In this document: one piece after another, positions 5,434 to 31,786 of the stretch
Numbering within the stretch: the first letter of the stretch is position 1
Layout of the letters: the number at the start of each line of letters is the position of its first letter
NCBI GenBank assembly: GCA_041494705.1
Contig: JBGQBI010000004.1
Span: 90,001-122,000 of the forward strand
Reading direction: 5' to 3'
Source: Candidatus Methanoperedens sp.
GTDB lineage: Archaea; Halobacteriota; Methanosarcinia; Methanosarcinales; Methanoperedenaceae
DNA: 32,000 nt
Position numbers and translations under genes: made by a program
The notes under the pieces: generated by a model
Seen by the model: only the letters and a program-made list of their open reading frames with translations
The model's database searches: none
What the model was told of the DNA's origin: nothing

Positions 5434-6576
5434 ATGAACCTCATAATACCAATAACACTATTCATTTTAATAGCGATACCTTATTCCATCTACATCGGAT
5501 TGATTCTTAAATACGGTAATAATGGATTTCCTGTTAAAAAATCTGGAAATAAGCCGACAATTTCAATGATTATCCCGACCTATAATGAAGAACTACTCAT
5601 AGGGAAAAAGCTTGATAATATCTTCAAACTGGATTATCCCCAGGGACTTATCGAGGTTGTAATAATTGATTCTTCAACCGATAGGACACCGGAAATAATA
5701 AAGGAATATCAAAAAAGATACAATTGCATAAATTTAATAACAGAAAAAAGGCAGGGCCTTGCAACCGCCCTGAACACAGCTTATGCAGCAGCTCGTAATG
5801 AAATTGTTATCAAAACAGACTGCGACAGCATGCTGGAAAAAGATGTGTTACAGAAAGTTGCGTCTGATTTTTCAGACCCGCAAATCGGCGGTGTAACCGG
5901 TAAACAGGTAGTGATTAATGAATCTAAAGTTGAGGTAGGTTACAGATCGCTGCAATCAAAAGTACAGATTGCGGAATCATGGATTGATTCAACCATAATC
6001 TTTCATGGGCCGTTCTCAGCATACAGAAAAGGCCTGGTTAAAACCATCGACCCCGATTCAGTGGCAGATGACAGCGAACTGGCAATAAAGGTTCGAAAGC
6101 AGGGATATAGGACAATCATCGACCCCGATATTATATTTTATGAAGCGAGCCAGAGTGCTTTTTTTAAACGAAGAATGCAGAAAGACAGGCGCGGGCGGGG
6201 GCTTATCAGGCTTTTGCTGCGTCATAAAGATGTGCTGTTTAATCCGGAATACGGAAATTACGGGAAGCTCGTGTTTCCGATGAACTACTTTATGATGATA
6301 CTTTCGCCGTATCTGATATTATTATTGTTTTTACTCTGTTTCATTATTTTATACCAATATAGTCTGATGGTTGCGGCGTCTGCCTTTATCTTACTGTTTA
6401 TTTTCATCTATCTGGGCCAGGCAAATAAGCTTTACATTTTTGAACCTGTCTACTCCTTCCTTGACACACAGATCTCTTTGCTTGTAGGTGGAATGAGCCT
6501 GATTTTCGGTAAAGAATCGGGAGGCACCTGGGAGGTTGACCAGGAACTCAGGGGTGCTTACCTGAAACATGAGTAA
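5434..6576 (+). CDS. Membrane-anchored family 2 glycosyltransferase (COG1215-like; candidate dolichyl-phosphate-sugar synthase or synthase-type GT)
   Basis: 380 aa. It has an N-terminal TM helix, a GT-A core (...ISMIIPTYNEE...), a DxD-like KTDCDS, then ...ADDSELA... and ...QKDRRGRG... in the position of the QxxRW region, followed by 3-4 C-terminal TM helices. Confidence 0.85.
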   Translation: MNLIIPITLFILIAIPYSIYIGLILKYGNNGFPVKKSGNKPTISMIIPTYNEELLIGKKLDNIFKLDYPQGLIEVVIIDSSTDRTPEIIKEYQKRYNCINLITEKRQGLATALNTAYAAARNEIVIKTDCDSMLEKDVLQKVASDFSDPQIGGVTGKQVVINESKVEVGYRSLQSKVQIAESWIDSTIIFHGPFSAYRKGLVKTIDPDSVADDSELAIKVRKQGYRTIIDPDIIFYEASQSAFFKRRMQKDRRGRGLIRLLLRHKDVLFNPEYGNYGKLVFPMNYFMMILSPYLILLLFLLCFIILYQYSLMVAASAFILLFIFIYLGQANKLYIFEPVYSFLDTQISLLVGGMSLIFGKESGGTWEVDQELRGAYLKHE

Positions 6577-7612
6577 GATCGCAATGGTATGCCACAGGTA
6601 TTATCCTGATATCGGTGGAGTGGAGACACATGTGCAGCAAATAAGCGAACGGTTAACGAAGCGCGGTTTTGATGTTGAAGTGATATGCACTGACCCAACC
6701 GGGAAATATCCGCAACAAGAATTTTATAATGGGGTTAAAATAACCCGCTTTAGATCACTTGCCCCGAAAAATGCCTATTTCTTTGCGCCGCAAGTATATT
6801 TTTATTTAAAAGACCGTGATTTTGACATAGTGCATGCACACAATTACCACGCATTCCCTGCTCTTTTTGCATCCATCGCAGCAAAGAGAAGATTCGTTTT
6901 CACGCCACATTATCACGGCGGAAGCCACTCTATACTGAGAAACCTGCTTCACAAACCTTATCAGTGGATTGGCAGCTTCATTTTTAAAAAAGCGGAGAAG
7001 GTGGTATGTGTATCAAAATATGAGATGAAGCTTATCGAAAATGATTTCCAGGTTCCACGATCAAAGCTTGTCCATATCCCCAATGGATTAAACCTGGAAG
7101 AGTTTAAAGCTATAAAAGAACTGGAAAAAGAATCAAAAATTGTTCTATATGCAGGCCGGTTGGAATCCTACAAGGGGATACGGTATCTAATAGAAGCGCT
7201 GCCCCTGCTCGATGGCTACAGACTCAAGGTAATCGGAAAAGGAAGCTATGATAAGAAACTGCATGAATTAGCCCAAAAGCTGAATGTAAGCGACAGGATT
7301 GACTGGTTAAAAGATATTGAAAGGGAAGAGTTACTATCCCACTTTAAATCCGCCGATGTTTTTGTTAACCTCTCTACATTCGAGGCATACGGCATTACAG
7401 TGGCTGAGGCTCTAGCATGCGGTACTCCATGCATAGTGGCAACGGGAGGAGCGCTGGAAGAATTCGTTGGCGATGGATGCGTGGGTTTGAGTTATCCGAT
7501 AGATATAAACGCACTTGCTCACACTATTGAGAGCAGAAAAAGAATCGTTCCAAGGAAAATGCCGGACTGGGATGATATTACATCCGAATTGATCCGATTA
7601 TACTCAAGATGA
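6569..7612 (+). CDS. Family 4 (GT-B) glycosyltransferase
   Basis: 347 aa. The N-terminus is ...CHRYYPDIGGVETHV... and the C-terminal donor-binding signature is ...STFEAYGITVAEALACGTPCIV.... Its start overlaps the upstream GT2 stop by 8 nt (ATGAGTAA), indicating an operon. Confidence 0.85.
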   Translation: MSKIAMVCHRYYPDIGGVETHVQQISERLTKRGFDVEVICTDPTGKYPQQEFYNGVKITRFRSLAPKNAYFFAPQVYFYLKDRDFDIVHAHNYHAFPALFASIAAKRRFVFTPHYHGGSHSILRNLLHKPYQWIGSFIFKKAEKVVCVSKYEMKLIENDFQVPRSKLVHIPNGLNLEEFKAIKELEKESKIVLYAGRLESYKGIRYLIEALPLLDGYRLKVIGKGSYDKKLHELAQKLNVSDRIDWLKDIEREELLSHFKSADVFVNLSTFEAYGITVAEALACGTPCIVATGGALEEFVGDGCVGLSYPIDINALAHTIESRKRIVPRKMPDWDDITSELIRLYSR

Positions 7613-7621
7613 ATTTACTCT

Positions 7622-9124
7622 TCAACACGTACCGCGGAAGAGTATTTTTGCGTTTTTCAATATCGACAGGGGTTCTTTTTTCAGCCTTAAGAAAGTTTCT
7701 GAAGCTAACAGGGAAGAAGGATTATGTATTACCAGTTCCAATGCCGCAAGCAGCATCGCATTTTTCCTCCAGGCTAAAAGTTTTTCGGGGTCATAATCTT
7801 CTGTACGCAGTAGCGGTTTCTGCATAGCCATCAGATAATCAACAGGCTCGGGCTCTTCTTTTATTAAATATCCTTTTGCTCTGGCATCCCTGTACATCTC
7901 GGTTCCAATCAGAGGGACGGCAATATTAAAATATGGTCTCACCCCTTTTCGGGCAAGTTTCCTGGAAAAATTTATGGTTTTTGTTACAGTTTTTTCTGTT
8001 TCTCCAGGAATTCCTAATATAAAGAAGGCACTTAGATCAATTCTTTTATCTCTTATCATTTTTACAGCATCTTCTAATTTTCTAAGGTCCATGTTTTTTC
8101 TGATAGTATTATATAGGAAATCCTGGTCACCGGATTCTACTGCTATGGTTAGACCCGAACATCCGGATTTTTTCATCGAATCGACAAGGTTCTCGGTAAG
8201 TCGGTCTGCTCTGATTCCGTTGGGTGTTTCCCATGTAATATCAATGCCTCTGTCTATTATTCCATTGAATATTGCTTCGGCTCTTGCAGGGTCAAATGTA
8301 AGATTATCATCTTCAAAGAAAATGTGTTTAACACCATACTTTTTAACAAGGTATTCAAGTTCATTAAGAACGTTGTCAGGCGACCTTGAGCGCCACTTCC
8401 TTCCTGATACCAGATTAACTGAACAAAAGTTACACATGAAAGGGCATCCCCTGCTGGTTATTACGGACATCCATTTTTTACTGGTCACTGACCTTGGAGA
8501 CATACCCGCCTTTCCACTATTGAAATACTCATCCATAGGAAGGAGATCATATGCCGGCAGGGGCAATGAATCCAGATCCATAATTGGTGGCCGCTGTCCT
8601 GTGAAAGCTATCTTATCTTCAACCCGGTAATGGATTCCTTTTACACCCGCAATATCGATGCGACCTTCAAAGCAGCGCATCAGGTCAAGCATCGTATATT
8701 CTCCTTCTCCCTGAGCTACGAAATCTATGTTCAAATCCCTTAAAACCATGCCAGGCGCAGCAGAGGTATGAGCGCCTCCTGCTATCACAGGCATATCAGG
8801 CAATTCATTTTTAACCGCGCTTGCCACTTCATGGAGATTGTTTGATTGGGAGGTGAACATGCAAGAAATACCCACGGCATCTGGTGAAAAGCCTGATACG
8901 ATAGCAGTGATCTGCTGAAGCGGCAGACCAACCCTGATGATGCCATTCTCCCCTAAATGCCTGACACGCCAGCCCTCTGCTAAAGCGTCAATAATTTTTA
9001 CCTCAATCCCATGCATTTGCAGATATGAAGCAATATACGCCAGTCCCAGAGGAAAGGGAACGCGAATACTATCTTCATAACCTTTTACTGTAGTCCACGG
9101 GGGATTGATAAGGCAAAGCTTCAT
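7622..9124 (-). CDS. B12-binding-domain radical SAM protein (class B-like), paralog 1
   Basis: The ORF track gives 7622-9145 with a TTG start. I prefer the internal ATG at 9124 (MKLCLINPP...), which is preceded by GAAGGA and aligns with the N-termini of the other three paralogs. The N-terminal Rossmann-like B12-binding pattern is ...PLGLAYIASYL..VKIIDA..PDAVGIS..PVIAGGAHTS..DFVAQGEGEYT.... The radical SAM cluster motif is SRGCPFMCNFCS (CxxxCxxC). There is no extra Cys-rich SPASM region. Confidence 0.9.
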   Translation of the reverse strand: MKLCLINPPWTTVKGYEDSIRVPFPLGLAYIASYLQMHGIEVKIIDALAEGWRVRHLGENGIIRVGLPLQQITAIVSGFSPDAVGISCMFTSQSNNLHEVASAVKNELPDMPVIAGGAHTSAAPGMVLRDLNIDFVAQGEGEYTMLDLMRCFEGRIDIAGVKGIHYRVEDKIAFTGQRPPIMDLDSLPLPAYDLLPMDEYFNSGKAGMSPRSVTSKKWMSVITSRGCPFMCNFCSVNLVSGRKWRSRSPDNVLNELEYLVKKYGVKHIFFEDDNLTFDPARAEAIFNGIIDRGIDITWETPNGIRADRLTENLVDSMKKSGCSGLTIAVESGDQDFLYNTIRKNMDLRKLEDAVKMIRDKRIDLSAFFILGIPGETEKTVTKTINFSRKLARKGVRPYFNIAVPLIGTEMYRDARAKGYLIKEEPEPVDYLMAMQKPLLRTEDYDPEKLLAWRKNAMLLAALELVIHNPSSLLASETFLRLKKEPLSILKNAKILFRGTC

Positions 9125-9201
9125 TTTTCCTTCTTTGATTCTCAAAGATATTAGGTCTTTCCTAAGTAAAGCATAAGTAATACTAAATCAAAAGAGCATC
9201 G
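9125..9201. promoter_or_regulatory. Short divergent promoter spacer between radical SAM paralog 1 (-) and the GT-C gene (+)
   Basis: 77 bp AT-rich spacer (…aagtaaagcataagtaatactaaatc…) between divergent start codons. The promoter assignment rests on position and AT-richness only. Confidence 0.3.
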
Positions 9202-11016
9202 ATGAATTCAGGCGATTCTAACATAGGAAAAAATACGCCAAAAACCTCAATACCATATTTGCAGCTAATATTGGACAGAGCACAAAAAAATAAATATCTT
9301 ATTGGGGTAATTTTATTATTTCTAATAAGTGCGCTTTCTGATTATATCTGGCTGAAACTTGACTCTATGCCGCCGGGGTGGGACGAGTCGGACCACCTTA
9401 CGAAGAGTCTTCAATATTATAACATTCTAACAAACCCTGGATCGGGTGCGATTTCAAATCTTATACAGGTTGATAATTACTACCCTCCTTTTTATCACCT
9501 TTCAACAGTGCTGTCATATTTCTTGTTTGGAACATCCATGGCTGCAGCTGTTTCAATAAATATATTCTATTTTGGTATTCTGTTGTTTTCAGTATATGGC
9601 ATAGGCAAATATCTTTATAACAAGGAAACCGGTCTCCTGGCTGCTGTTTTTATTTCTCTTTATCCCAGCATGGTTGGAATGCGTCGGTATTATCTGATAG
9701 AGATAGCACTTATCGCTACTGTAGCCCTCTGCATTTATTTGCTCCTCCTGTCTGACCATTTCAGGAACAGAAAATATTCTATCGGGTTTGGGATTGCATT
9801 TGCAGTCAGCATTCTCACCAAATGGACGGCATTATTTTTCATAATAGGGCCGCTGGGCGTTGTACTATATGAGTCTTTTATCAAAAATAGATCTTTTTTC
9901 AAAAAATCCACAAAAAAAATCTGCACTTATTGCGGAAAAGAAGTTACCAATAAAGAAATTATCTATAGTAAAGAATCTTTTTGCTCATCAAACTGCAAAA
10001 CTTTATGGAAAAAAGGACAAAAAAAGAACGTTACCGGAATAGGTTCAACCCCGGCAACCAATTTTATTTTGATGGGGGCTGCCGCTCTTTTTTTTTCGTT
10101 GATATGGTACGCGCCGCACATAAGCGAAGTCTACCGCACGATTGTATGGGGGAATGAATACTGGGGAACTACAGAGGGCCAACCGGAGGTCTTTACGCTT
10201 CAGTCCATGCTATTCTATGTGTTCTCCCTGATAAACTTCCAGGTTTCTTTCATTTTTTTTATCCCGTTTCTGATAGGTTTGGTAATTATCCTGAGGCATC
10301 ATTTAAAATCGAATTATTTTCTTCTTTCCTGGATTGCACTGCCCTTTATCCTGATGACGTTCTTGCGGCATAAAAATGATAGATATACTATAGCATTCAT
10401 TGCCGCGGTTGCTATTATCTCTGCATTCTGGATTGCCTCTCTTAAAAGTAAAAAAACAAAAGCAGCGGTTATCTTGGTCATCCTGCTGGCCGGGGGGATA
10501 CAGCTATTCACCCTTGCCGAAGGTCTTGATGTTTCAAAAGACTTTCATATTGAAACCATGGCCGGTGGGCTTGATCTGTATTCAACCGCGTTATACGGCA
10601 CACGCCCACCCGCGAGTCAGGACTGGAAGGTAGAGGATGCACTGGACAGCATTATGGCTGATACCAGAACCAATCCCAGAATGTATAACAGAGTAGGCTA
10701 TATCGGCATAGTACCGGACATGGCTTTTACCAACGGTCTGACCTATGGTTATTATTCTTATATGAAAAAGCTTCCATTTAATGTTTTAAGCGTCCCGTAC
10801 TTTGAAGCCCTGGAACCCTTTGCACAGAACTTTTTGAACTTTGATTATCTCATTTTTAAATCAGGAGAGACTTCAGGATTTTCAAGAAAGAAGCTGGTGA
10901 GTGATATGTACGATTATTTTAAACAGCATAACTCAAGCTACGTTCTTATTAAAGAATACAATCTACCGGATAATTCAACATTAACTGTTTACAGGAACAC
11001 CTATATTCCCAAATAG
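9202..11016 (+). CDS. GT-C fold glycosyltransferase, PMT_2/ArnT-like (AglS-like candidate), with an inserted CxxC...CxxxC zinc ribbon
   Basis: 604 aa polytopic membrane protein. The first-loop acidic motif is ...PPGWDESDH.... It also carries ...YPPFYHL...FG.S...A... and ...ILTKWTALFF..., as in the dolichyl/undecaprenyl-phosphate-sugar-dependent GT39/GT83-type enzymes. The C-terminal domain is soluble. A Lys-rich loop carries CTYCGKEVTNKEIIYSKESFCSSNC (nt 9922-9996). Confidence 0.75.
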   Translation: MNSGDSNIGKNTPKTSIPYLQLILDRAQKNKYLIGVILLFLISALSDYIWLKLDSMPPGWDESDHLTKSLQYYNILTNPGSGAISNLIQVDNYYPPFYHLSTVLSYFLFGTSMAAAVSINIFYFGILLFSVYGIGKYLYNKETGLLAAVFISLYPSMVGMRRYYLIEIALIATVALCIYLLLLSDHFRNRKYSIGFGIAFAVSILTKWTALFFIIGPLGVVLYESFIKNRSFFKKSTKKICTYCGKEVTNKEIIYSKESFCSSNCKTLWKKGQKKNVTGIGSTPATNFILMGAAALFFSLIWYAPHISEVYRTIVWGNEYWGTTEGQPEVFTLQSMLFYVFSLINFQVSFIFFIPFLIGLVIILRHHLKSNYFLLSWIALPFILMTFLRHKNDRYTIAFIAAVAIISAFWIASLKSKKTKAAVILVILLAGGIQLFTLAEGLDVSKDFHIETMAGGLDLYSTALYGTRPPASQDWKVEDALDSIMADTRTNPRMYNRVGYIGIVPDMAFTNGLTYGYYSYMKKLPFNVLSVPYFEALEPFAQNFLNFDYLIFKSGETSGFSRKKLVSDMYDYFKQHNSSYVLIKEYNLPDNSTLTVYRNTYIPK

Positions 11017-11056
11017 GAAACTATTATAGTTCTAAAAATTATTAATGGCTTAGAAT

Positions 11057-12229
11057 ATGAAAGTCGCTTTCTTCGCATTTGACATTTTTTCACCATCTGA
11101 TACTGCCGGATTTGTGCATACCATTGAAATAACAAAAAAGCTGTCCTCACTCGTTGAATTAAAATTATTCGCAGCCCCTTCAATTAAAAGAGCTTTAAAC
11201 CCTTTCCTGTGGGAAGAAAGAATAGAGGGGCTGAACATAAATTATGCAAGATTTACACTATGGTTCAAACCATACCTTATACCGTTTATCCCTTTTAATT
11301 TTTTAAGTTATTATAGGGTATACACGAAGACAAAGCAGTTTCATCCCGACATAATCCATGAACGTTTCCATTCACCAAATCCTTTTGGATACCGTATTTC
11401 CAGGAAAATAGATGTGCCAAGAGTACTGGAAGTAAACAGTCCGTATATAGAAGATGAGGCTTATAAAAATCCAATATTTAAAAAAATCGCAGAAAAAGAC
11501 AGGAGAACGCAATTTGAACATGCAGACGCTATTATAACCCAGACCGAGACTTTGAAAAAGATTATCTCGAATGTTACCGACGTTCCAATTTATGTAGTGC
11601 CAAATGGTGTAAATACAACGAAATTCAAGCCGGGTGATTCTTCTGAGCTTAGAAATAAACTCGGCATACCTGAAGATGCTGTGGTGATAACATTCAGCGG
11701 TTCCTTTAGAAAGTGGCATGGAGTCCATCTTATTCCAAAAATAGCCGAAAAACTGATGAAGTCGTATGATGATTTATATTTCTTAATGATAGGTTCCGGA
11801 CAGTTATTTGAAAAAATTAAAAATTCCGGAATGAAGAATACATTTTTTCTCGGTTCTGTAAATTATAATAAGCTTCCGGCTTATTTGAATATTTCAGATA
11901 TTTGCATAGCTCCGTTTGATGCTTCCGAGTTCAAATACTTTGAAAAACTCGGGTTTTGGTGGAATCCGCTAAAACTTTTTGAATACCTGAGTATGGGAAA
12001 ACCCGTAGTGTCTTTTGATTTTGATGAAGTAAAAAAGATAGTAGCAGATGGAGGGCTTCTTGCAAATCCAGGTGATTTGAACGATTTCGTAGAAAAGCTT
12101 GAGTATTTAGTGAATAACAGAAAGGAAAGGCAGAGACTCGGAAATAATGCAAGAGAATTGGCATTAAAGGAATACGACTGGAAAAAACGCGCAGAAGAGA
12201 CGGTTAAAATTTATCAGAAGGTGTTGTAA
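11057..12229 (+). CDS. Family 4 (GT-B) glycosyltransferase
   Basis: 390 aa. The central motif ...VITFSGSFRKWHG... and the C-terminal ...NPLKLFEYLSMGKPVV... (the E-x7-E-like region) match the GT4 architecture. Confidence 0.8.
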   Translation: MKVAFFAFDIFSPSDTAGFVHTIEITKKLSSLVELKLFAAPSIKRALNPFLWEERIEGLNINYARFTLWFKPYLIPFIPFNFLSYYRVYTKTKQFHPDIIHERFHSPNPFGYRISRKIDVPRVLEVNSPYIEDEAYKNPIFKKIAEKDRRTQFEHADAIITQTETLKKIISNVTDVPIYVVPNGVNTTKFKPGDSSELRNKLGIPEDAVVITFSGSFRKWHGVHLIPKIAEKLMKSYDDLYFLMIGSGQLFEKIKNSGMKNTFFLGSVNYNKLPAYLNISDICIAPFDASEFKYFEKLGFWWNPLKLFEYLSMGKPVVSFDFDEVKKIVADGGLLANPGDLNDFVEKLEYLVNNRKERQRLGNNARELALKEYDWKKRAEETVKIYQKVL

Positions 12230-12289
12230 CTGGAAAAAGAATCACTTGGGAAAATAATTTTTAAATCAAGTTCTATAGTATTCTTTGCT

Positions 12290-13747: not shown

Positions 13748-13749
13748 AC

Positions 13750-14553: not shown

Positions 14554-14592
14554 GAAATATTCAAAAATATCTTCTATTGCAAGTAGGGATTA

Positions 14593-15636: not shown

Positions 15637-15761
15637 TCATTTCACCATGCTTTAGACATCATTGGAGTATTTTATTGTTTTCTTTTAATCCTTTCTCAAA
15701 AAATATTTAGCTCTTTTTTATAGCAATTTACGTCGCTTTAAAGGCCCGCGGAATTTATCAA
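15637..15761. promoter_or_regulatory. Intergenic break in the minus-strand gene array (probable terminator plus internal promoter)
   Basis: This is the only gap over 100 bp within the minus-strand array. Read on the minus strand, it contains an ATTTTTT tract downstream of the GT4 stop and a CTATAAAAAA TATA-like box (plus 15714-15723) about 80 nt upstream of the epimerase ATG. Motif-level only. Confidence 0.3.
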
Positions 15762-20640: not shown

Positions 20641-20646
20641 GTTTAC

Positions 20647-21723: not shown

Positions 21724-21761
21724 GAAATCCTCATTTTTCAATCATCAATATCGCTTCCATA

Positions 21762-21866: not shown

Positions 21867-21867
21867 T

Positions 21868-23855: not shown

Positions 23856-23861
23856 ATTCCT

Positions 23862-24403
23862 CTAATCAATGTTTTTTATTATTTTGGCAGGCGTTCCGGC
23901 TGCTACGGAATATTCCGGGATGTCCATATTCACCAGGCTATTAGCACCAATAACAGAACCTGTTTTGATTGTTACACCCTTCAAAATCGTACAACCTTTT
24001 CCAATCCATACATTACTTTCTATCACAACAGATGCAGTTTTTAGTTCCTGTTCCCGTATCAACTTTCCTTTTTTGAAATTATGGTCATGGTCTCTAATAG
24101 AGGTATATTCTCCTATCAAGACATCATCACCAATATTAATAGAATTGTAAGAAATAACAATTACCCCATATGCCAGATGCACATTGTTTCCAATGTTTAT
24201 CCGACCTTTATTTCCTCCTACAAAAGAGTTCCTGCCAAACCAGACATTGTCACCACAATAAATTTTCGTGTCCCCCCCCATCCATTATAACCTTCAAAAA
24301 ATACATTTTTTCCAAGGCGTGTAAAATGTCTTGAATAATAAATGTTCATTAGATTATTACGCATATAATTATATATATTTTTAATATACAATTTAAGCCC
24401 CAT
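23862..24403 (-). pseudogene. Hexapeptide-repeat (LbH, WcaF/WbbJ/LacA-like) acetyltransferase interrupted by a frameshift in a G8 homopolymer
   Basis: Two ORFs in different frames overlap at the tract. The 5' part (24218-24403) is MGLKLYIKNIYNYMRNNLMNIYYSRHFTRLGKNVFFEGYNGWGG.... The 3' part (23862-24281) is ...DTKIYCGDNVWFGRNSF..INIGNNVHL..INIGDDVLIGEYTSIRDHDHNF..NVWIGKGCTILKGVTIKTGSVIGANSLV..AGTPAKII. Adding 1 G (or removing 2) gives one continuous protein of about 180 aa with a normal family N-terminus. The 5' ATG abuts the stop of the upstream radical SAM gene (TAAATG). Confidence 0.75.
24272..24279 (-). repeat. G8 homopolymer (C8 on the plus strand) at the acetyltransferase frameshift site
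   Basis: Read directly from the sequence: ...cgtg tCCCCCCCCa tcc.... It is the longest G/C run I noticed in a locally very AT-rich region. Confidence 0.95.
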
Positions 24404-25912
24404 TTATTTTAATAAATTGATAATCCTGTCTTTAATAAATTTTTCTTCTTCCTGGTACTTAAAAAAATTAAATTTCCATCTCAATTTAGGTGAAATAGAA
24501 TAAATCATACCTAAATTCGATTCAGTCAATTTTTTTATGGTTTTTAAATCATAAACCAGATACTTCGAATTTTCAGATAAGAAACGTATGAACTCGGGAT
24601 CGTCAACCCAGGGAAGATCATCAAGACTATTATATCCGGTATTTTTATTGGCATTAGCCCATTCACGAAGGGATTCAGGCTCATATAATCCTAATTTTTT
24701 ACATTGTTCATACAATTCTCCTCCCGGATAGGGCCTGAATATAAAATTATCATAATGTCTTGCTGTAGGACATATCTTGTTTATTTGCCTCATAATTATA
24801 ATATTTGTTTTCATTTCTTCTATAGTTTTCCCCGGTAGTGCTATCATCCATGAATATACAGGAATGATACCTGACTTGGCGCATACTTTTGCAGAATTTA
24901 ATAAGTCTTCTGTAGTTATATCTTTTTTAAGGCTTTTCAAAACAGCGTTAGAACCGGATTCTGCGCCCATAGTTGCAAATTCAAATCCTACGCTCTTTAA
25001 TTCTTTAGCGAAATCCACAGTCACATAGTTTTCTTTAAAATAATTAGCTCGGATGTTAGTTCCCCATTTAACATCGATTTTTCTCTCCTTCATTTTTTTA
25101 ATTATTTCTTCCGCTCTTTTTTTATTTACAAAGAAATTTTCATCCAGAGGCCGGATCATATCCAGCTTATATTTATCAACAATAAATTCAAACTCATCAA
25201 GGAACCTGTCCGCATCCTGAGCCCTCCAACCGGATTTGGTAACTTTATTTATACAGAAAGTACACCTGTACGGGCACCCGCGGGAAGACAACATGACCAG
25301 TTTTCTAATCTTTTTAGTATCTGAGAATATTATAGGAACAGGTCTTTCCAAATAAAATCTTAAATCTAAAAGATCATGATTGAGAAAGGGAAGTTTATTT
25401 ATGTCTAAGAAATCCCTTGGTTGAGTTACAAATCCATCATAAGCAATTCCTTTAATCTCTTCAAACTTGGAATTTTTCTTTTCAATTTCATTGATTAACT
25501 CTAAAGCTGATGCCTCTCCTTCTCCATAAACCACAAAATCAACCAGAGGGTCATTTGATGTTTGCGCAGGGAATAAAGATGGATGAACCCCACCCCAAAT
25601 GATCGGAATATCCGGATACTTGCTCTTAATAAATTGGCTAATCGACAGCGCGTTTGAAACTTGTGCCGTCATAACCGATATGCCAACGCAGATAGCGTTA
25701 CCAAGTTCTTTTTCAAGTATTTTCAGATAGGAGTCATCGCCTACTTCATGGTACGGCACTACATCTAAAATTTTTACAGAATAACCTTTTTCGTGTAGAT
25801 ACGTCCCAATTGCCAAAACTCCCAACGGTTCTCTAATTCTGACATCCTCTAATCTAGTATAATTTAGATTTTGTCTTGCGATTGCAGGATTAATTAGTAT
25901 TATTTCAGCCAT
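24404..25912 (-). CDS. B12-binding-domain radical SAM protein (class B-like), paralog 2
   Basis: 502 aa. The N-terminus is MAEIILINP...PLGVLAIGTYL..VKILDV..ICVGISVMT..PIIWGGVHPSLFP..DFVVYGEGEASALEL.... The cluster motif is SSRGCPYRCTFC. It is most similar to paralog 4 by eye (shared WGGxHPSL, GEGE, and KxxW-R after the cluster motif). Confidence 0.9.
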   Translation of the reverse strand: MAEIILINPAIARQNLNYTRLEDVRIREPLGVLAIGTYLHEKGYSVKILDVVPYHEVGDDSYLKILEKELGNAICVGISVMTAQVSNALSISQFIKSKYPDIPIIWGGVHPSLFPAQTSNDPLVDFVVYGEGEASALELINEIEKKNSKFEEIKGIAYDGFVTQPRDFLDINKLPFLNHDLLDLRFYLERPVPIIFSDTKKIRKLVMLSSRGCPYRCTFCINKVTKSGWRAQDADRFLDEFEFIVDKYKLDMIRPLDENFFVNKKRAEEIIKKMKERKIDVKWGTNIRANYFKENYVTVDFAKELKSVGFEFATMGAESGSNAVLKSLKKDITTEDLLNSAKVCAKSGIIPVYSWMIALPGKTIEEMKTNIIIMRQINKICPTARHYDNFIFRPYPGGELYEQCKKLGLYEPESLREWANANKNTGYNSLDDLPWVDDPEFIRFLSENSKYLVYDLKTIKKLTESNLGMIYSISPKLRWKFNFFKYQEEEKFIKDRIINLLK

Positions 25913-25916
25913 CGTT

Positions 25917-27332
25917 TCACCCTATCATTTTTCTATAGGACGACCACACAATTTCAAATAAATGCATTTTTTTTAATGCACCTATTAAACTATATTTTAA
26001 TAATTCTGATATATTTTTAGTATAAAGGGAATAATAAATAAAATAGCAGTTATAATAATAATTGATTTGGGACGTTGTTAGTTGTGGGTAATTCAATATC
26101 GATTTTTCATAATATGTATCGATTTTATTTTTTTTATCAAGCACTACCCAGTCATTCTCATAACAGAGTTCTCCCAATTTGGTTCCGCGGAATGGATAGA
26201 AAACGGAGACTTGTATAGCATCAGGTTTTATTTGGGAATTGAGAACTATTGTTTGTTTGATATCCGCTGTAGTTTCGAATGGCAATCCAACCATATTAAA
26301 AGAATACGTTTCTAAATTATACTTCTTCGCAAGCTTAAAGGCCTCAGTTATTTGGTTGTTCGTATTATGCCTATTTAAAACTTTTGAGCGTATTTCTTCA
26401 CTTCCGGATTCTATTCCTATCTGCAATCTTTTGCAACCTGCATCAGCGATTTTAGATATTAAATCTTCTTGGCAAGTTTCAGGGCGGGCATTAGCATAAA
26501 AAGGCAAACCAATTTCTTTTTTATATTTTTCGGCAAATTCGGTTATCCATTTTTTGTTTAAAAGCATGGTATCGTCATAAAACCCGATGGAGTTGAACTT
26601 GTAAATTTTCTGAAGTTCCTTAATTTCCTCTATCACCCTGTCAACCTTACGAAATCTGACATATCTATCCTTCACAGGATACAAGTTTCTCACATGCTCA
26701 TTTATACAATATGTGCAGTTAAATGGACACCCCCGACTGCACATGATTCCGATCTTTTTAAGTGCGCCAGTCTCACTATTGCCGCTAAACTCATGACCCA
26801 CGATGGTCTCTTCATCAAAAATCGACCTATCCGGAAAAGGTAAACTATCAATGTCTGGAGGGGAATCAAGCTCATTTCTAATAATTTTATCGTTATCTTT
26901 AACCCAAATCCCTTTTATTTCATCAATTTTTTTGTTGTTTTCCATTAAACGTACAAGATTTGTAAGAGTTTCTTCCGCCTCGCCCCTTGCCACATAATCG
27001 ATGCTGGATAAATTGATAATCTCTTCAGGTGCAAGAGTTGCATAAGGTCCACCAACGATTATTTTTGCATTAGACTCTTGTTTAATTATCTTGCTCAGTT
27101 TCTCCACATATTTAGCCCCGAATTCAGTTATAGAAAAACCAACAAGGTCCGGATTAAATTTTTTAAGTTCTATTAAGACTTTCTCAATGTAGTTTTTTTT
27201 ATCTCTTTTCTTTAGATGAATCAAATTTACTTTATGCCCATCTTCTTTTAGAACCGCTGATAGGCTGGCAACCCCTAGCTGGAAATCCCCCTTTTCACTT
27301 TCAAAGTTTGGGTAAATAAACTGGATTCTCAT
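25917..27332 (-). CDS. B12-binding-domain radical SAM protein (class B-like), paralog 3
   Basis: 471 aa. The N-terminus is MRIQFIYPN...QLGVASLSAVL..VNLIHL..PDLVGFSITE..IIVGGPYATLAPE..DYVARGEAEETL.... The cluster motif is CSRGCPFNCTYC. Its start overlaps the upstream GT4 stop (ATGA), and its stop is 4 nt from the start of paralog 2. Confidence 0.9.
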   Translation of the reverse strand: MRIQFIYPNFESEKGDFQLGVASLSAVLKEDGHKVNLIHLKKRDKKNYIEKVLIELKKFNPDLVGFSITEFGAKYVEKLSKIIKQESNAKIIVGGPYATLAPEEIINLSSIDYVARGEAEETLTNLVRLMENNKKIDEIKGIWVKDNDKIIRNELDSPPDIDSLPFPDRSIFDEETIVGHEFSGNSETGALKKIGIMCSRGCPFNCTYCINEHVRNLYPVKDRYVRFRKVDRVIEEIKELQKIYKFNSIGFYDDTMLLNKKWITEFAEKYKKEIGLPFYANARPETCQEDLISKIADAGCKRLQIGIESGSEEIRSKVLNRHNTNNQITEAFKLAKKYNLETYSFNMVGLPFETTADIKQTIVLNSQIKPDAIQVSVFYPFRGTKLGELCYENDWVVLDKKNKIDTYYEKSILNYPQLTTSQINYYYNCYFIYYSLYTKNISELLKYSLIGALKKMHLFEIVWSSYRKMIG

Positions 27333-28468
27333 TTTATTCTAACATTGGTTTCATAGATTTTAATGTATCTATCTGCTATTGACTCCCAATCGTACTTTTT
27401 CTCTACCAGAAGCCTTCCACATCGCTCCATATTTTCTTTTATCTCATTGTTCTCAAATAACCATACTATCTTTTCGGCCAGTTCATTGATGTTTTCTGGT
27501 TTAAAAAGTATTCCATTCTCACCATTACGAATTATTTCTGGAACCCCATCCACATCTGCCGCAATGATCGCTTTTCCAGCAGCCATTGCTTCAAGATTTG
27601 TGATCCCGAAGGGTTCTATTCTTGAAGGAAGAACGAAGAACTCACAGCCATTATATAATTTAATCACTTCCTTTCGCTCAACAAAACCAAGCATTTTTAC
27701 CCGTTCTTTCAGACCGAGTTCGTTTACCAAATGGGCACATATTTGCCATTCTTCACCTGTGCCTGCAATTATCAAATCAAGTTCCAGTTTTTTATCTGCG
27801 ACTTGTTTAAAGGCTTTTATCAAAATATCAAAGCCTTTCTTATGAACAAAACGTCCGATTGAAAATATGTATGGTCTTGCTTGAAGATATTTTTCTTTTA
27901 ATTCAAACTCCTGTAAATCAATACCATTAGGTATTGGCTGAGATTTATTTTGGATTTCCGGGGCAATTTGATTTGCATCGTTTAACAGACTTCTTGAACA
28001 TCCAGTTATAAAGTCAGCGCTATTTAATAAATTTTTCAATACCCCTTTGCATATTTTTGACTCATAAGGAAACTGCTGAACATCATTTCCATGCACACTT
28101 ACTACTAACGGGTAATTTAACAACTTTTTTGACAGTAGAGTATATGACCCATTCGCATATATAAAATGAGCATTTACTATTTCTGGCTTGACTCTTTTTA
28201 GCAACCAGAGTAATTTTATGTTTGCAATTATACCTAGAGTCAAAAAACCAAATATTGATTTAATTCGTAGTGTAGGTAAAATAAAATCCAATCTATATAT
28301 CTCTATACCGTCAATTAAATCTCGCGAAGCCAGATTGCGAGGTGTTTTCGCAGCAATTACTGTTACTTTGTGACCTCTATTTGTAAATTGTTTTGCTAGA
28401 TTGTAGACCACCATTTCTACCCCACCTATATTAGGCAAGTATAGATCAGTAATTAATATTATTTTCAT
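27329..28468 (-). CDS. Family 4 (GT-B) glycosyltransferase; first gene of the long minus-strand operon
   Basis: 379 aa. The N-terminus is ...LYLPNIGGVEMVVYNLAKQFTNRGH.... The C-terminal signature is ...FFVLPSRIEPFGITNLEAMAAGKAIIAADVDG.... A GAGGAA SD (plus 28476-28481) lies about 8 nt upstream of the ATG. Confidence 0.87.
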   Translation of the reverse strand: MKIILITDLYLPNIGGVEMVVYNLAKQFTNRGHKVTVIAAKTPRNLASRDLIDGIEIYRLDFILPTLRIKSIFGFLTLGIIANIKLLWLLKRVKPEIVNAHFIYANGSYTLLSKKLLNYPLVVSVHGNDVQQFPYESKICKGVLKNLLNSADFITGCSRSLLNDANQIAPEIQNKSQPIPNGIDLQEFELKEKYLQARPYIFSIGRFVHKKGFDILIKAFKQVADKKLELDLIIAGTGEEWQICAHLVNELGLKERVKMLGFVERKEVIKLYNGCEFFVLPSRIEPFGITNLEAMAAGKAIIAADVDGVPEIIRNGENGILFKPENINELAEKIVWLFENNEIKENMERCGRLLVEKKYDWESIADRYIKIYETNVRIK

Positions 28469-28652
28469 GGGATATTTCCTCTTTCTTCAGCGTAGTGGTC
28501 GTATTTGCAATTTCGACATTAATATTATGATTGATAGGAATCCTATTCCAGACTTTTTAATTGTATTATCCGCAAGTAAAATATTTATTATGCATTTTAA
28601 CATATAATATGTGAGATAGGTATAATAACATAGGGGTAATTTTAGTTCCGCA
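28469..28652. promoter_or_regulatory. Divergent promoter region for the minus-strand operon and the plus-strand membrane protein gene
   Basis: 184 bp very AT-rich spacer with several TATA-like elements (…acattaatattatg…, …aaatatttattatgcattttaacatataatatg…). The assignment rests on position and composition. Confidence 0.3.
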
Positions 28653-30353
28653 GTGATATATTTGATAAATTTATTAATGTACTGGTTTTATATCAGCATA
28701 ATCATTTTAATGTCATTTATTCCTGGCTTTGCCATTGCCAGCCGTTTCAAAAATCTAAGCGTTTTAGAGAAATTAAGCGTCAGTTTTGGTTTTTCTTTTG
28801 TAATTATTGTATTACTTGTACCTTTTTTTGCATTTAAACTTAATTTTATAGCACAACTCATTTTTATTTACATAATGATTTTTTCAGTATTGTATTTACT
28901 AAAAAAGAGATCAGAGTTAAAATTTGAAATAAACTCAAGGATTATAATGTCGGTACTAATTATCGGTCTGATCTTAAACTTCTTTCTCCAGACCCTCTGG
29001 GAATACCCTGTCACTGGCGGAGATTGGATTAGCCACACATTATTTATCCCATATGATTTTAATTCAGGTAATTGGACACTACCACATGACCGTACACCTT
29101 TTTTTAATCTTCTTATTTTTTCATATCATCATTTATTGGGTACATCTCTCTTCCAATACTGGATTTCACAAATCATCAGCGTGGTTGCAAACAGCATTTT
29201 TATTCTTCCAGCCTTTTTGATAGCGAAAAATGTATTTAATGATAAGGTAGCTAAAATATCAGCTGCTTTCATGGTTATAACGCCATGGCTTGTCTGGCAG
29301 TCAATTTATACATGGCCAAAAAACTTAGCGATGTATTTCATCCTACTTATGGTGTATTTTATGTTTTTCAAAAAGGAAAACAAACCTCTAAGTTATGGAC
29401 TTTCCGGTTTATTTGGTGCATTAGCATTTTTAACGCATAACTACACTATATTCTATATTCTCACAGCATTGCTGGCCTTTATTTATATCAAAAAAATTTA
29501 CCAACACCCTTTAATTATTCTTCAGGAATTGTTTAAAGAAAAATTTATTTATTTTTTTATTGTGATAGTAGTAGCAATAGTGCCGTATATTGTGTGGATG
29601 TATGCCTCTTATGGAGAAATAGTTAAAAGTCGTCTTCTTTATTATCCCTTTTCAGTTAACGGTTACGTGCAAGCGTCTTACAGTGATCCTCAGGAAATAT
29701 TCAATACTTTTTTCAAAACACCGATAAGTTCAATAATAGATATTCGGATTTCAAATGCGATTGTTACATTATTGCCTGTTGTGCTCCCGATTAACCCCAT
29801 TGCAACACATTTCCCAACATATTATCCAGCTTTATATTATATGCAAGATTATCCGGGTGGGCTTTCTTTTTTGATGTACATACTAGTAGTTATTTGGTTC
29901 TCAAGATACCTGTTTAGAAAAACAAATACGAATGCAGTTTTGGTAATTCTTGTTATAGTACCTTTTCTGGTAACCCTCTTCATAGCCGGATGGAAAGACT
30001 GGGGATTACTCACTTATGCACTGGGTCCCACAATTCCAATTTTAATAATGCTTGGAACTAATGAATTGTATGGATTTAAGACTTCATGGATTAGAACTGC
30101 ATATGCGTATTTAATGTTTATAGTATGCCTGATGGAAGGTTTGATTTTCGGAGTGCTTATCAATGATCTTTATTTGGCAACCGGTGGAATAAAGGATGTG
30201 ATAGATGTTGGCGCTCGCATTCCCGGCTTTCAAATATCTTCTTTCATTTCGGCTCACTTTTTATTGAAGGGAATTGAAGATTTTTCAACGAATGCGGCGA
30301 TATCCATTTTGATAATTATTGTTACAATATATTATCTGTCAAAAAAAAGCTAA
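28653..30353 (+). CDS. Polytopic membrane protein, GT-C-like (candidate lipid-linked-sugar glycosyltransferase or glycan polymerase)
   Basis: 566 aa with at least 12 predicted TM helices. The loop ...YPVTGGDWISH..., then ...RTPFFNLL...LGTS... and ...LAFLTHNYT... parallel the order of the DE / PPxxxL / FGxS / LTKxxA elements in the GT-C protein at 9202-11016. The family call is pattern-based only. The start (GTG 28653 versus ATG at codon 9) is uncertain. Confidence 0.55.
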   Translation: MIYLINLLMYWFYISIIILMSFIPGFAIASRFKNLSVLEKLSVSFGFSFVIIVLLVPFFAFKLNFIAQLIFIYIMIFSVLYLLKKRSELKFEINSRIIMSVLIIGLILNFFLQTLWEYPVTGGDWISHTLFIPYDFNSGNWTLPHDRTPFFNLLIFSYHHLLGTSLFQYWISQIISVVANSIFILPAFLIAKNVFNDKVAKISAAFMVITPWLVWQSIYTWPKNLAMYFILLMVYFMFFKKENKPLSYGLSGLFGALAFLTHNYTIFYILTALLAFIYIKKIYQHPLIILQELFKEKFIYFFIVIVVAIVPYIVWMYASYGEIVKSRLLYYPFSVNGYVQASYSDPQEIFNTFFKTPISSIIDIRISNAIVTLLPVVLPINPIATHFPTYYPALYYMQDYPGGLSFLMYILVVIWFSRYLFRKTNTNAVLVILVIVPFLVTLFIAGWKDWGLLTYALGPTIPILIMLGTNELYGFKTSWIRTAYAYLMFIVCLMEGLIFGVLINDLYLATGGIKDVIDVGARIPGFQISSFISAHFLLKGIEDFSTNAAISILIIIVTIYYLSKKS

Positions 30354-31786
30354 CCCTTTATCCAGAAGTCCATCAATTTTGATTCCAGCATAAATTTAAA
30401 AAAAAGATTTTTCACTCTGAATCTTGCTATGGGCTTATAAATATCAGAGAGGATTCCTTTCGAAGAATAAACCATCCCTCTACTTCCATGCAGGAAAAGT
30501 GAGGAATAAAATAAATACTTCAACATTTTCATCCTCTGGTCGGATATCCATGGTATATTACCATAGTTGGACCCACTCCATCCTTCCAGGGTGGATGGAA
30601 CTCTATATCCCTCATTTATCGCCTTACCGAAAATTTCTGTACCAGGATATGGTACGTAGTTGCAAAGCGGTGATGAGATTGCATTTGGTGAACCATCTAT
30701 TAATTCAAAAACTAATTCTACTGTTTTTTTCAGGTCTTCTTCAGTTTCTGTGGGAAAACCTGCCATGAAATTATACTGGCAGACAATATTGAATTTTTTG
30801 AGTTTTTTCGCCACCTCTCTGACCTGGGAAATTGTAATATTTTTTCTTACTAGATTCAAAATTCTCTCAGATCCAGATTCAATTCCAAAATGAAGTTTTC
30901 TGCATCCACTCTTTTCTATCAAACTTAGAAATTCATCATTCATCTTAATAGCTATTTTTACATTTATTCCCTGACTTTCCCATGTAAGATCCCAACCTTC
31001 TTTGATGATACCTTTTGCGATCTCTTCCACTCTTTTTAAATCTATGAAAAAATCATCGTCGACTATATATAAATTCTTAACACCATATTTTTCCACCCCT
31101 CTTTTTATCATCGCTAAAGTTTTTTCAGCAGATAAGGCCCGCCACTTTCTCTTGTTATATGCAGGATTGTAGCAATAGGCACAGTTATTCGGGCATCCTC
31201 TTGAAGTTTGTATGTTTAGTGTCGGTCTACCTTCAAATAATGGTAAATACTTTTTTACCTCAACCAAATGATAAGGTAGGTCTGGAAGTGTATTCAAATC
31301 AACAAAAGGACGTGGATTGTTGTTCTTGATTACACCGTTTGACTTAAACCAAACTCCTTCTATTCCATCTAATGCGATACCTTTATCCAGATGTTTTACA
31401 AGTTCATAAAAAGTGATCTCACCTTCGCCTGCAACCACAATATCAACGAATTCGTTTTCGAGAGTTTCAGCAGGCAAAAGACTTGGGTGAATACCTCCCC
31501 AAACAACCGGTACTTTCGATTCTTTTTTAACTATTTTGGATGCCTCTAAGCCATGTTTAATCTGCACTCCCGTCATTGACGTCACACCGACACAAATTAC
31601 ATCCTTCTTCAACTCTTCTTTCAGTGTGTTTTTCCATTCCAAATCAGTTCTTTGGTCAATTATTCTTACTTTGTATTCTTTTTCAACTAACGTTGATACA
31701 CATAACAAAGCAAGCGGTAGAGATGGTGATGTTCTCACTTCGTCCCAATCTCCTACTATCGGCTGAATTAGAATAACATTTCTCAT
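30350..31786 (-). CDS. B12-binding-domain radical SAM protein (class B-like), paralog 4
   Basis: 478 aa. The N-terminus is MRNVILIQP...PSLPLALLCVSTL..VRIIDQ..ICVGVTSMT..PVVWGGIHPSLLP..DIVVAGEGEITFYEL.... The cluster motif is TSRGCPNNCAYC. A GAGGA SD lies 5 nt upstream of the ATG. Its TAG stop overlaps the TAA stop of the convergent membrane protein gene. Confidence 0.9.
   Translation of the reverse strand: MRNVILIQPIVGDWDEVRTSPSLPLALLCVSTLVEKEYKVRIIDQRTDLEWKNTLKEELKKDVICVGVTSMTGVQIKHGLEASKIVKKESKVPVVWGGIHPSLLPAETLENEFVDIVVAGEGEITFYELVKHLDKGIALDGIEGVWFKSNGVIKNNNPRPFVDLNTLPDLPYHLVEVKKYLPLFEGRPTLNIQTSRGCPNNCAYCYNPAYNKRKWRALSAEKTLAMIKRGVEKYGVKNLYIVDDDFFIDLKRVEEIAKGIIKEGWDLTWESQGINVKIAIKMNDEFLSLIEKSGCRKLHFGIESGSERILNLVRKNITISQVREVAKKLKKFNIVCQYNFMAGFPTETEEDLKKTVELVFELIDGSPNAISSPLCNYVPYPGTEIFGKAINEGYRVPSTLEGWSGSNYGNIPWISDQRMKMLKYLFYSSLFLHGSRGMVYSSKGILSDIYKPIARFRVKNLFFKFMLESKLMDFWIKG

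Follow-up and report, generated by a model that had tools for sequence, protein, structure and literature searches.

A glycan gene island beside AglB in Candidatus Methanoperedens with four candidate glycan-tailoring radical SAM enzymes of B12-domain architecture

The oligosaccharyltransferase AglB of the archaeon Candidatus Methanoperedens sp. is encoded beside about 26 kb of glycan genes, and embedded in this island are four genes, here called R1 to R4, whose products join a B12-binding domain to a radical S-adenosylmethionine (SAM) core. The window, that is, the whole stretch of DNA analysed, comprises 32,000 nucleotides (nt) of assembly GCA_041494705.1 (contig JBGQBI010000004.1, positions 90,001-122,000, forward strand), and the coordinates below are counted from its first letter. 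Gene context in the window and in relatives provides good support for a glycan-tailoring role of R1-R4; by sequence they appear to lie outside every characterised family, and the possibility that they C-methylate sugars is weighed below against other chemistries. Genes were called from a program-made list of open reading frames (ORFs) combined with Pfam scans, while family assignment relied on NCBIfam models with curated cut-offs. The features of the window are as follows (GT, glycosyltransferase; SDR, short-chain dehydrogenase/reductase).

89-610, minus strand: ribosomal protein L10e, left of the island
806-2689, plus strand: GatE, between L10e and AglB
2735-5293, minus strand: AglB, oligosaccharyltransferase of the archaeosortase-A-associated type (Pfam STT3, AglB_core-like and AglB_L1; TIGR04154 749 bits, cut-off 450)
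5434-6576, plus strand: GT2 glycosyltransferase (PF00535 89.5 bits)
6569-7612, plus strand: GT4a (PF13439 and PF00534)
7622-9145, minus strand: R1, B12-binding and radical SAM domains (PF02310 78.9 bits, PF04055 89.7 bits)
9202-11016, plus strand: GT-C a (GTCa), GT-C fold, PMT_2 family (PF13231 43.7 bits and PF02366 36.5 bits, both above cut-off)
11057-12229, plus strand: GT4b (PF00534 83.6 bits)
12290-13747, plus strand: Wzx-type oligosaccharide flippase of the MOP superfamily (PF01943 60.4 bits, PF01554)
13750-14553, minus strand: MTa, class I SAM methyltransferase (PF08241 61.3 bits)
14593-15636, minus strand: SDRa, nucleoside diphosphate (NDP)-sugar epimerase/dehydratase (PF01370 170.9 bits)
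15762-16925, minus strand: GT4c (PF00534 131 bits)
16927-17622, minus strand: MTb, class I SAM methyltransferase (PF08241 62.1 bits)
17626-18735, minus strand: pyridoxal phosphate-dependent sugar aminotransferase of the DegT/DnrJ/EryC1 type (PF01041 427 bits; top NCBIfam model PseC, 286 bits, below cut-off)
18707-19711, minus strand: SDRb, NDP-sugar epimerase/dehydratase (PF01370 184 bits)
19687-20640, minus strand: RmlB, deoxythymidine diphosphate (dTDP)-glucose 4,6-dehydratase (TIGR01181 476.9 bits, cut-off 365)
20647-21741, minus strand: RmlA, long form, glucose-1-phosphate thymidylyltransferase (TIGR01208 443.5 bits, cut-off 320)
21868-23115, minus strand: GT4d (PF00534 154 bits)
23112-23855, minus strand: MTc, class I SAM methyltransferase (PF13847 79.8 bits)
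23862-24281, minus strand: hexapeptide-repeat acetyltransferase, WbbJ/WcaF-like (PF00132 48.5 bits; WbbJ model 90.8 bits, below cut-off)
24404-25912, minus strand: R2, B12-binding and radical SAM domains (PF02310 61.9 bits, PF04055 63.5 bits)
25917-27332, minus strand: R3, B12-binding and radical SAM domains (PF02310 67.4 bits, PF04055 93.1 bits)
27329-28468, minus strand: GT4e (PF00534 156 bits)
28653-30353, plus strand: GT-C b (GTCb), GT-C fold, PMT_2 family (PF13231 36 bits, cut-off 26.1)
30350-31786, minus strand: R4, B12-binding and radical SAM domains (PF02310 50.9 bits, PF04055 99.3 bits)

From 5434 onward the plus-strand genes GT2, GT4a, GT-C a, GT4b and Wzx, with R1 inserted on the opposite strand after GT4a, lead to a long minus-strand run from MTa to GT4e, and the right end of the window is occupied by GT-C b on the plus strand followed by R4 on the minus strand. 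The island thus totals one GT2, five GT4, two GT-C enzymes of the PMT_2 family, Wzx, RmlA, RmlB, two further SDRs, DegT, a hexapeptide acetyltransferase, three class I methyltransferases and the four B12-binding radical SAM proteins. This agrees in every item with the inventory of the initial annotation, whose description of the 26 kb as nearly uninterrupted is borne out as well, with a coding share of 97.3% in 5434-31786. The AglB and GT2 genes are divergent across a spacer of 140 nt, GT2 and GT4a overlap by 8 nt, and the start of R1 faces GT-C a across a short divergent spacer. On the other side of the island the genes of GT-C b and R4 are convergent and overlap by 4 nt. GT4e opens an operon that runs through R3 to R2: a 4-nt overlap joins the first two genes and a 4-nt gap separates the last two, which indicates that all three are translated together.

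Both RmlA and RmlB pass their equivalog cut-offs, so that the entry into the dTDP-6-deoxyhexose pathway is present. The end product of this nucleotide-sugar branch is apparently not rhamnose, because the window holds no equivalog of RmlC or RmlD; the presence of DegT and the acetyltransferase makes an acetamido-dideoxyhexose the probable product. SDRa scores above cut-off for no NCBIfam equivalog, and GT2 for no NCBIfam family. The TIGR04157 model (glyco_rSAM_CFB) gives GT4a and GT4e 98 and 76 bits, far under its cut-off of 400. GT-C a is expected to use a lipid-phosphate-linked sugar as donor on the outer side of the membrane. Scans of the window for tRNAs and against Rfam returned no matches.

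R1-R4 all exceed the Pfam gathering scores of the B12-binding domain (PF02310, 50.9-78.9 bits against 32.1) and of the radical SAM core (PF04055, 63.5-99.3 bits against 29.5). Each carries a single CxxxCxxC motif, namely CPFMCNFC in R1 (C234/238/241), CPYRCTFC in R2 (C213/217/220), CPFNCTYC in R3 (C202/206/209) and CPNNCAYC in R4 (C198/202/205), and in an alignment of 46 sequences of the R4 family the three cysteines of this motif are the only invariant ones. No SPASM domain (PF13186) and no second cysteine motif was found in the four proteins, which contain 7-8 cysteines each. The combination of a B12-binding-type domain with a radical SAM core free of SPASM, proposed at the outset, is therefore confirmed for all four; the GGxH...GEGE pattern attributed to each of them occurs in R1, R2 and R4, and R3 reads GGPY...GEAE instead. 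The DxHxxG motif is absent from all four, which fits the base-off binding of cobalamin in the solved class B enzymes, all of which lack a protein ligand to the cobalamin and this His-on motif (PMC12931638).

Pairwise identities among R1-R4 are only 25-31%, and the 360 top database matches of R1, R2 and R4 are each closest to their own query; the four are thus likely to represent old subfamilies and not recent duplicates. At 50% identity R3 represents a cluster of its own, and the next representatives share no more than 43% identity with it. R4 has at least 120 homologs at 43-97% identity and belongs to a large family that crosses domains. The ORF of R1 opens at a TTG codon (9145, 507 amino acids), with an ATG seven codons downstream at residue 8 (MKLCLINPP). 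Its close homologs (77-95% identity) are 499-501 amino acids long, and for this reason the ATG at 9124 is the more probable start. The N-termini of R1-R4 open directly with the first beta strand of the Rossmann fold, without a signal peptide, which points to a cytoplasmic location, where their substrates would be nucleotide sugars or intermediates linked to dolichyl phosphate that Wzx has yet to flip.

None of the four proteins reaches the cut-off of any curated NCBIfam family, and membership in one was rejected for each of them. The top match of R1 is the Sden_1168 P-methyltransferase family (NF038361, 262 bits over residues 11-430, cut-off 575), and the PhpK model (TIGR04479, cut-off 600) gives R1 125 bits; R2-R4 obtain 93-125 bits with these two models. 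BchE (TIGR02026, cut-off 481) is the top match of R2 with 129 bits, within a range of 122-139 bits for R1-R4, and HpnJ (TIGR03471, cut-off 577.6) that of R3 and R4, with 167, 109, 134 and 148 bits for R1 to R4, respectively. In the same order, the AprD4 diol-dehydratase model (NF033070, cut-off 500) yields 104, 37, 71 and 69 bits. The model of MgmA/QCMT, the glutamine C-methyltransferase of methyl-coenzyme M reductase (TIGR04014, cut-off 360), yields 48-106 bits, and the ladderane-lipid model TIGR04072 matches below threshold. Sequence matches in the PDB are weak too (AprD4, MgmA, TokK, OxsB, TsrM and CysS, E = 1e-20 to 1e-6): AprD4 is the best for R1 (E = 1e-20) and R3 (3e-17), and the MgmA entry 9ccb reaches only E = 3e-19 to 3e-13. 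The alignments with AprD4 are confined to the radical SAM core and those with TokK, OxsB and MgmA extend into the N-terminal domain; the latter three are true cobalamin binders, while AprD4 and ArsL carry a related domain that does not bind the cofactor (PMC12931638).

R4, the one paralog that was modelled (AlphaFold on the 46-sequence family alignment, predicted local distance difference test score 91.8), superposes in a Foldseek search about equally on AprD4, TsrM, OxsB, MgmA, CysS and TokK (E = 1e-22 to 1e-17, query TM score 0.59-0.76). The predicted fold thus confirms the class B architecture and would accommodate methylation and other reaction types alike. Taken together, the PF02310 match, the CxxxCxxC core and the lack of DxHxxG, with the modelled fold in the case of R4, confirm class B radical SAM architecture for R1-R4 at the level of sequence and model, and place them, on present profiles, outside every characterised family. 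A placement of the paralogs inside families with established non-glycan roles, which had been considered as a refutation, did not occur: NCBIfam matches remain far under cut-off and the best PDB match stands at E = 1e-20. The label 'cobalamin-type' holds for the architecture and not for the cofactor, as AprD4, the top structural match of the R4 model, binds no cobalamin.

The island sits in what appears to be chromosomal Methanoperedens DNA, because L10e and GatE are 94-97% identical to their counterparts on chromosomal Methanoperedens contigs (L006 and L012) and are contiguous with AglB, itself 73% identical to AglB of Candidatus Methanoperedens metagenome-assembled genomes (MAGs). L10e and GatE (1-2700) have a GC content of 0.46-0.49, against 0.33-0.36 in MTc, R2, R3, GT4e, GT-C b and R4 (23000-32000), and this drop is consistent with lateral exchange of the distal part. 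A Borg extrachromosomal element, suggested by the low GC, was rejected: the window contains no tandem repeats, the housekeeping genes are contiguous, and the Borg paper describes no such cluster.

GT2 and GT4a seem to form the conserved core of the island, with orthologs (84-86% and 73-78% identity, respectively) beside AglB in loci L003, L011 and L081. Around this core the relatives diverge, and the pattern suggests a mosaic whose radical SAM genes ride on exchangeable accessory cassettes: R1 is missing in L003, GT4e-R3-R2-MTc moves as a block and R4 stays with GT-C b. In L003, whose AglB shares about 70% identity with that of the window, GT2, GT4a, GT-C a, Wzx and MTa are all retained and a GT4 takes the place of R1. 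L081 retains R1 and its neighbours at 78-88% identity (the GT-C a ortholog at 86%) before diverging, and R1 stands beside GT-C a there as well as in L082. Wzx orthologs of 72-77% identity occur in L003, L081 and L170. In L170, GT-C b (53%), GT4e (68%, same position), R3 (80%), R2 (82%) and MTc (74%, directly after R2) are kept; this locus lacks R4 and the acetyltransferase and is otherwise syntenic. The convergent pair of R4 (97%) and GT-C b (85%) recurs in L085 between flanks that differ on both sides and include a 695-residue B12-binding radical SAM protein, a radical SAM-SPASM protein and a split transketolase; in L086 a PMT_2 gene takes the same position beside an R4 relative. R1 and R4 therefore each adjoin a GT-C gene of the PMT_2 family in the window and in close relatives. 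The clustering of four distantly related class B radical SAM genes is in all likelihood beyond chance, because they share 26 kb, R3 and R2 are coupled to a GT4, and the same cassettes recur in relatives. The notion of the four genes as one fixed system gives way to that of independently moving cassettes.

The island probably continues past the right end of the window, as suggested by L085, where the far side of R4 carries a methyltransferase, a giant DUF2341 protein, a PMT_2, a GT2-LPG_synthase_TM fusion and SDR genes. Such fusions of GT2 to LPG_synthase_TM, beside PMT_2, are found in Methanoperedens-type islands (L085:1224-2975, L086:6428-9943, L170:2346-4085) and presumably have the architecture of the Haloferax AglD-type dolichyl-phosphate-hexose synthases; none lies inside the window, and one probably lies just beyond its right end. 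Giant secreted-type proteins (1257, >1875 and 1399 amino acids, with DUF2341, Laminin_G_3, Big_3_5 or Metallophos domains) are encoded beside radical SAM and glycan genes on contigs of Bathyarchaeia and Methanoperedens (L084:14754-21416, L085:4948-9147) and may be glycoprotein targets.

The glycan context of these enzymes recurs well beyond Methanoperedens. Eight neighbourhoods of distant homologs (44-62% identity) were examined singly, and six of them are glycan clusters (L084, L086, L088, L089, L171 and L172). They include a Bathyarchaeia cluster (L084), a locus with four B12-binding radical SAM genes amid GT2, GT4, two PMT_2, methyltransferase, nucleotidyltransferase and SDR genes (L086), and a bacterial cluster from KSB1 that combines NeuB, GT8, DegT and a sulfotransferase (L089); R2 homologs of 56% and 49% identity lie in the clusters L088 and L089. 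The cleanest case is a compact four-gene operon, SDR-GT2-rSAM-GT4 (rSAM, radical SAM), amid housekeeping genes of a Hadarchaeales MAG (L172).

On a broader scale, the R4-family alignment picked up 80 loci in metagenomes; in 28 of them the R4 relative is 40% or more identical, and the 120 genes within three positions of these relatives were classified by pooled Pfam scans. They comprise 26 radical SAM genes (15 with a B12 domain, five with SPASM), 23 glycosyltransferase genes (10 GT2, eight PMT_2 and five GT4), nine methyltransferases, five SDRs and three Wzx, so that about a quarter are glycan genes and about a fifth further radical SAM genes. A share of about 1% would be expected for either class, and both observed shares are far above it. 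Genes seven or more positions away are unfit as a background, being still inside the same clusters (>20 kb) and rich in glycosyltransferases and radical SAM proteins. Enrichment of the homologs near glycosylation genes of other genomes, the outcome on which the initial annotation had staked its reading, was accordingly found, both in the distant homologs and among the metagenomic neighbours.

AglB lies at most four genes from an R4 relative in L097 and L110, and a class B radical SAM gene occurs within 10 kb in only 5 of 79 AglB neighbourhoods of Methanosarcinales and relatives. Because of this low count, of bacterial relatives placed in bacterial polysaccharide clusters and of two distant homologs without glycan context, the link seems to be with glycan clusters in general and not with AglB or archaea specifically. 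The survey of AglB neighbourhoods thus upholds the tie to AglB and glycan genes at this locus and not its specificity.

Three further observations were made. Around an R4 relative on a metagenomic contig (L092:3517-17330), about nine class B radical SAM genes stand nearly in a row. In R4-family relatives below about 40% identity, the radical SAM gene is directly preceded, in the same orientation, by a gene for a protein of about 318 amino acids (L120-L151; for instance L120:3769-4725, L127:9009-9965, L139:9042-9986 and L144:9005-9985). This neighbour probably belongs to the HMGL-like family (PF00682), which leads the families of adjacent genes with 17 of 127 and is missing from the leading families around relatives of 40% or more identity; the two genes seem to form a conserved aldolase/synthase and B12-binding radical SAM pair of their own. 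Three AglB proteins 42-48% identical to that of the window are filed under Ratteibacteria, Pedobacter and Thermodesulfobacteriota MAGs (L013, L021 and L069), probably through binning errors.

R2 has a recurrent partner of its own. An MTc-like methyltransferase adjoins an R2 homolog in L170 (74%, directly after it) and in L088 (42%, directly before it), and the 763-residue protein P0222 of Omnitrophota fuses an R2-like B12-binding radical SAM part (residues 8-489, 37% identical to R2) to a class I methyltransferase (residues 567-738). Adjacency and fusion thus suggest that R2 and a conventional methyltransferase act together. Other long relatives, namely P0112 (858 amino acids, with SPASM) and P0429, P0435, P0448, P0451 and P0482 (737-1063 amino acids), may also be fusions.

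These data can be assembled into a proposal that we hold to be about evenly balanced between right and wrong: the region would be a variable surface-glycan island that feeds AglB-dependent N-glycosylation, in which R1-R4 tailor sugars by cobalamin-dependent radical C-methylation. The conserved core (GT2 and GT4a) and the dTDP-4-keto-6-deoxyhexose branch (RmlA, RmlB, the SDRs, DegT and the acetyltransferase) would assemble a lipid-linked oligosaccharide in the cytoplasm; Wzx would flip it, the two GT-C enzymes would add sugars on the outside and AglB would transfer the product to protein. R1-R4 would be cytoplasmic class B tailoring enzymes brought in on cassettes, R1 next to GT-C a, R3 and R2 with GT4e (and MTc), and R4 next to GT-C b. 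In each, SAM would be reductively cleaved at the [4Fe-4S] cluster of the CxxxCxxC motif to give a 5'-deoxyadenosyl radical, which would take a hydrogen from an unactivated carbon of the sugar, the sugar being attached to a nucleotide or, ahead of flipping, linked to dolichyl phosphate. Methyl-cobalamin would then quench the resulting substrate radical, yielding a C-methylated (branched) sugar, and the class I methyltransferases would supply O- or N-methyl groups. To the observed gene content, architecture, operon coupling, cassette behaviour and recurrent glycan context, this proposal adds four elements that we infer, namely the sugar substrate, the cytoplasmic side, the use of cobalamin and methylation. 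Transfer of the product to asparagine by AglB is suggested by adjacency and by the GT2-GT4a core that stays beside AglB in relatives; a glycolipid or an exopolysaccharide is also a possible product. Methylation is a priori the most likely chemistry, since every characterised sequence-similarity-network group of B12-binding radical SAM enzymes includes C-methyltransferases (PMC12931638) and the nearest curated family of R1 is a P-methyltransferase.

Several points weigh against this proposal. No curated family is matched, and the chemistry is therefore not readable from homology; the top NCBIfam matches of R2-R4 are BchE and HpnJ, which are non-methylating enzymes, and the best fold match of the R4 model is AprD4 (PDB 6fd2, TM score 0.70-0.75), a sugar 1,2-diol dehydratase that works without cobalamin. 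The pairing and fusion of R2 with a methyltransferase may mean that R2 itself does not methylate. Two of the eight distant homologs stand outside a glycan context, one among housekeeping genes (L083) and one among unknown and CRISPR genes (L087). PMT_2 genes are not enriched beside R4 relatives (8 of 120 within three genes versus 4 of 114 at seven or more genes, Fisher p = 0.38), and a strict radical SAM-GT-C module, not upheld in the wider R4 family, is kept as a possibility. To our knowledge, no C-methyl sugar occurs in any archaeal N-glycan and no glycan structure of Methanoperedens has been described. The C-methyl or branched sugars foreseen in the initial annotation remain a guess.

The main rival, in our judgement unlikely, grants that R1-R4 tailor the glycan and assigns them non-methylating radical chemistry, with or without cobalamin: deoxygenation/dehydration, epimerisation, oxidation, or ring contraction/rearrangement. 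Its possible models are AprD4 acting on paromamine, HpnJ on hopanoid glucosamine and OxsB on deoxyribose. AprD4 is indeed the best PDB match of R1 and R3 by sequence and of the R4 model by fold, and HpnJ or BchE leads the NCBIfam matches of R2, R3 and R4, but the AprD4 model gives only 37-104 bits against a cut-off of 500 and HpnJ 109-167 against 578; the AprD4 alignments moreover cover the radical SAM core only, and the N-terminal domains score 51-79 bits against the B12-binding cut-off of 32. Three conventional methyltransferases are already present, one of them paired or fused with R2, so the radical SAM step may create a position that is then methylated. The BchE/HpnJ group is the largest and is unexplored, with no features that separate its non-methylating members from methylases, so that sequence cannot tell the two apart; methylation nevertheless is the commonest known function of the class (PMC12931638).

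Two other explanations move the radical chemistry off the sugar. In one, decidedly improbable, the substrate would be a lipid (dolichol or another archaeal carrier, a membrane lipid or glycolipid head group) or the peptide chain of the glycoprotein, and the radical SAM genes would be merely co-located or co-regulated. Lipids and peptides are the substrates of many class B enzymes (HpnP/HpnR, the ladderane radical SAM enzyme, PoyB/C, Mmp10/MgmA; PMC12931638), TIGR04072 and TIGR04014 give sub-threshold matches, the homologs in L083 and L087 lie outside glycan clusters, and R4-family clusters are often rich in radical SAM genes, some with SPASM and about nine in L092, a pattern also typical of peptide and natural-product clusters. 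Against this stand the translational coupling of R3 to a GT4, the minimal Hadarchaeales operon of SDR, GT2, rSAM and GT4 only, and the six glycan clusters among eight distant contexts; the Pfam matches in the window include no precursor-peptide or lipid-synthesis genes, and the lipid and peptide family models all score far under cut-off. In the other explanation, which we consider very improbable, the enzymes would make a non-carbohydrate substituent for the glycan, such as an unusual acyl or alkyl group, or one derived from an amino acid, attached to the DegT amino sugar. The island does make an amino-deoxy sugar by its gene content (RmlA, RmlB, DegT) and has an acyl/acetyltransferase, and radical SAM neighbours in related clusters include HMGL-like proteins (17 of 127), Glu/Leu/Phe/Val dehydrogenases (4 of 127), the split transketolase of L085 and a thiamine diphosphate enzyme (L090), but none of these keto-acid genes is in the window, and HMGL-like genes accompany the subfamily below 40% identity, not the close relatives of R4.

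If sugar C-methylation or a related radical modification of the glycan is retained, the enzymes would represent a known class in a new pathway role that recurs widely in uncultivated anaerobes. Such cassettes or their relatives occur in Methanoperedens, Bathyarchaeia, Hadarchaeales, Woesearchaeota, Omnitrophota, KSB1 and Elusimicrobiota. A wider proposition is advanced tentatively, at somewhat less than even confidence: exchangeable cassettes of a glycosyltransferase and a class B radical SAM enzyme, with or without a methyltransferase, may be a widespread means of glycan diversification in anaerobic archaea and bacteria, by which sugars of lipid-linked or nucleotide-activated intermediates would be C-methylated, deoxygenated or rearranged in their skeleton, and would bring the first radical SAM chemistry to archaeal N-glycosylation. 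About 84,000 radical SAM proteins carry a B12 domain, most of them without known function (PMC12931638). Should sugars be the substrates, the surface glycans of archaea and candidate phyla would hold carbon-level modifications that standard glycomics mis-assigns, and strain-level swapping of cassettes would vary surface antigens, perhaps against viruses, in nitrate- or metal-dependent methane oxidisers. The Hadarchaeales SDR-GT2-rSAM-GT4 operon and the GT4-R3-R2-MT cassette (MT, methyltransferase) would then be small, testable systems for new radical carbohydrate chemistry.

Known systems offer partial parallels. HpnJ, which remodels an amino sugar linked to a lipid, and BchE share the two-domain layout and a similar length with R2-R4; genes for hopanoid or bacteriochlorophyll synthesis are absent from the window. 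The Sden_1168/PhpK P-methyltransferases are the nearest curated family of R1, in a window without phosphonate genes (phosphoenolpyruvate mutase and others). The characterised Agl pathways (Haloferax AglJ/G/I/E/D/R/S, the Methanococcus Agl enzymes, Sulfolobus Agl3/Agl16) share with the island AglB-linked GT2 and GT4 enzymes, a flippase, GT-C enzymes acting on the outside, nucleotide-sugar enzymes and SAM methyltransferases. We know of no described archaeal Agl pathway that uses a radical SAM enzyme. This view, already held in the initial annotation, is in line with a full-text literature search (subscription-only papers outside its scope), which returned nothing linking AglB or archaeal N-glycosylation with B12-binding radical SAM proteins, nor a prokaryotic surface-glycan pathway with a radical SAM enzyme; a 2026 review of the enzyme class mentions no glycans, polysaccharides or sugars (PMC12931638). 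AprD4, the radical SAM 1,2-diol dehydratase of apramycin biosynthesis, is the best match of the R4 model by fold and of R1 and R3 by core sequence and acts on a sugar ring (paromamine), but binds no cobalamin (PMC12931638). It differs further in that its family model falls far under cut-off and its alignment covers the core only. GenK, GenD1/GntE, Fms7 and MoeK5 methylate unactivated sugar carbons of aminoglycoside or phosphoglycolipid intermediates. All four are listed in the same review (PMC12931638). They have the same B12-type Rossmann domain and CxxxCxxC core as R1-R4, and are encoded in clusters with glycosyltransferases and sugar aminotransferases. GenK-type enzymes serve bacterial secondary metabolism, whereas R1-R4, distant from all PDB and NCBIfam relatives tested, belong to what appears to be an archaeal island of primary cell-surface or N-glycan genes.

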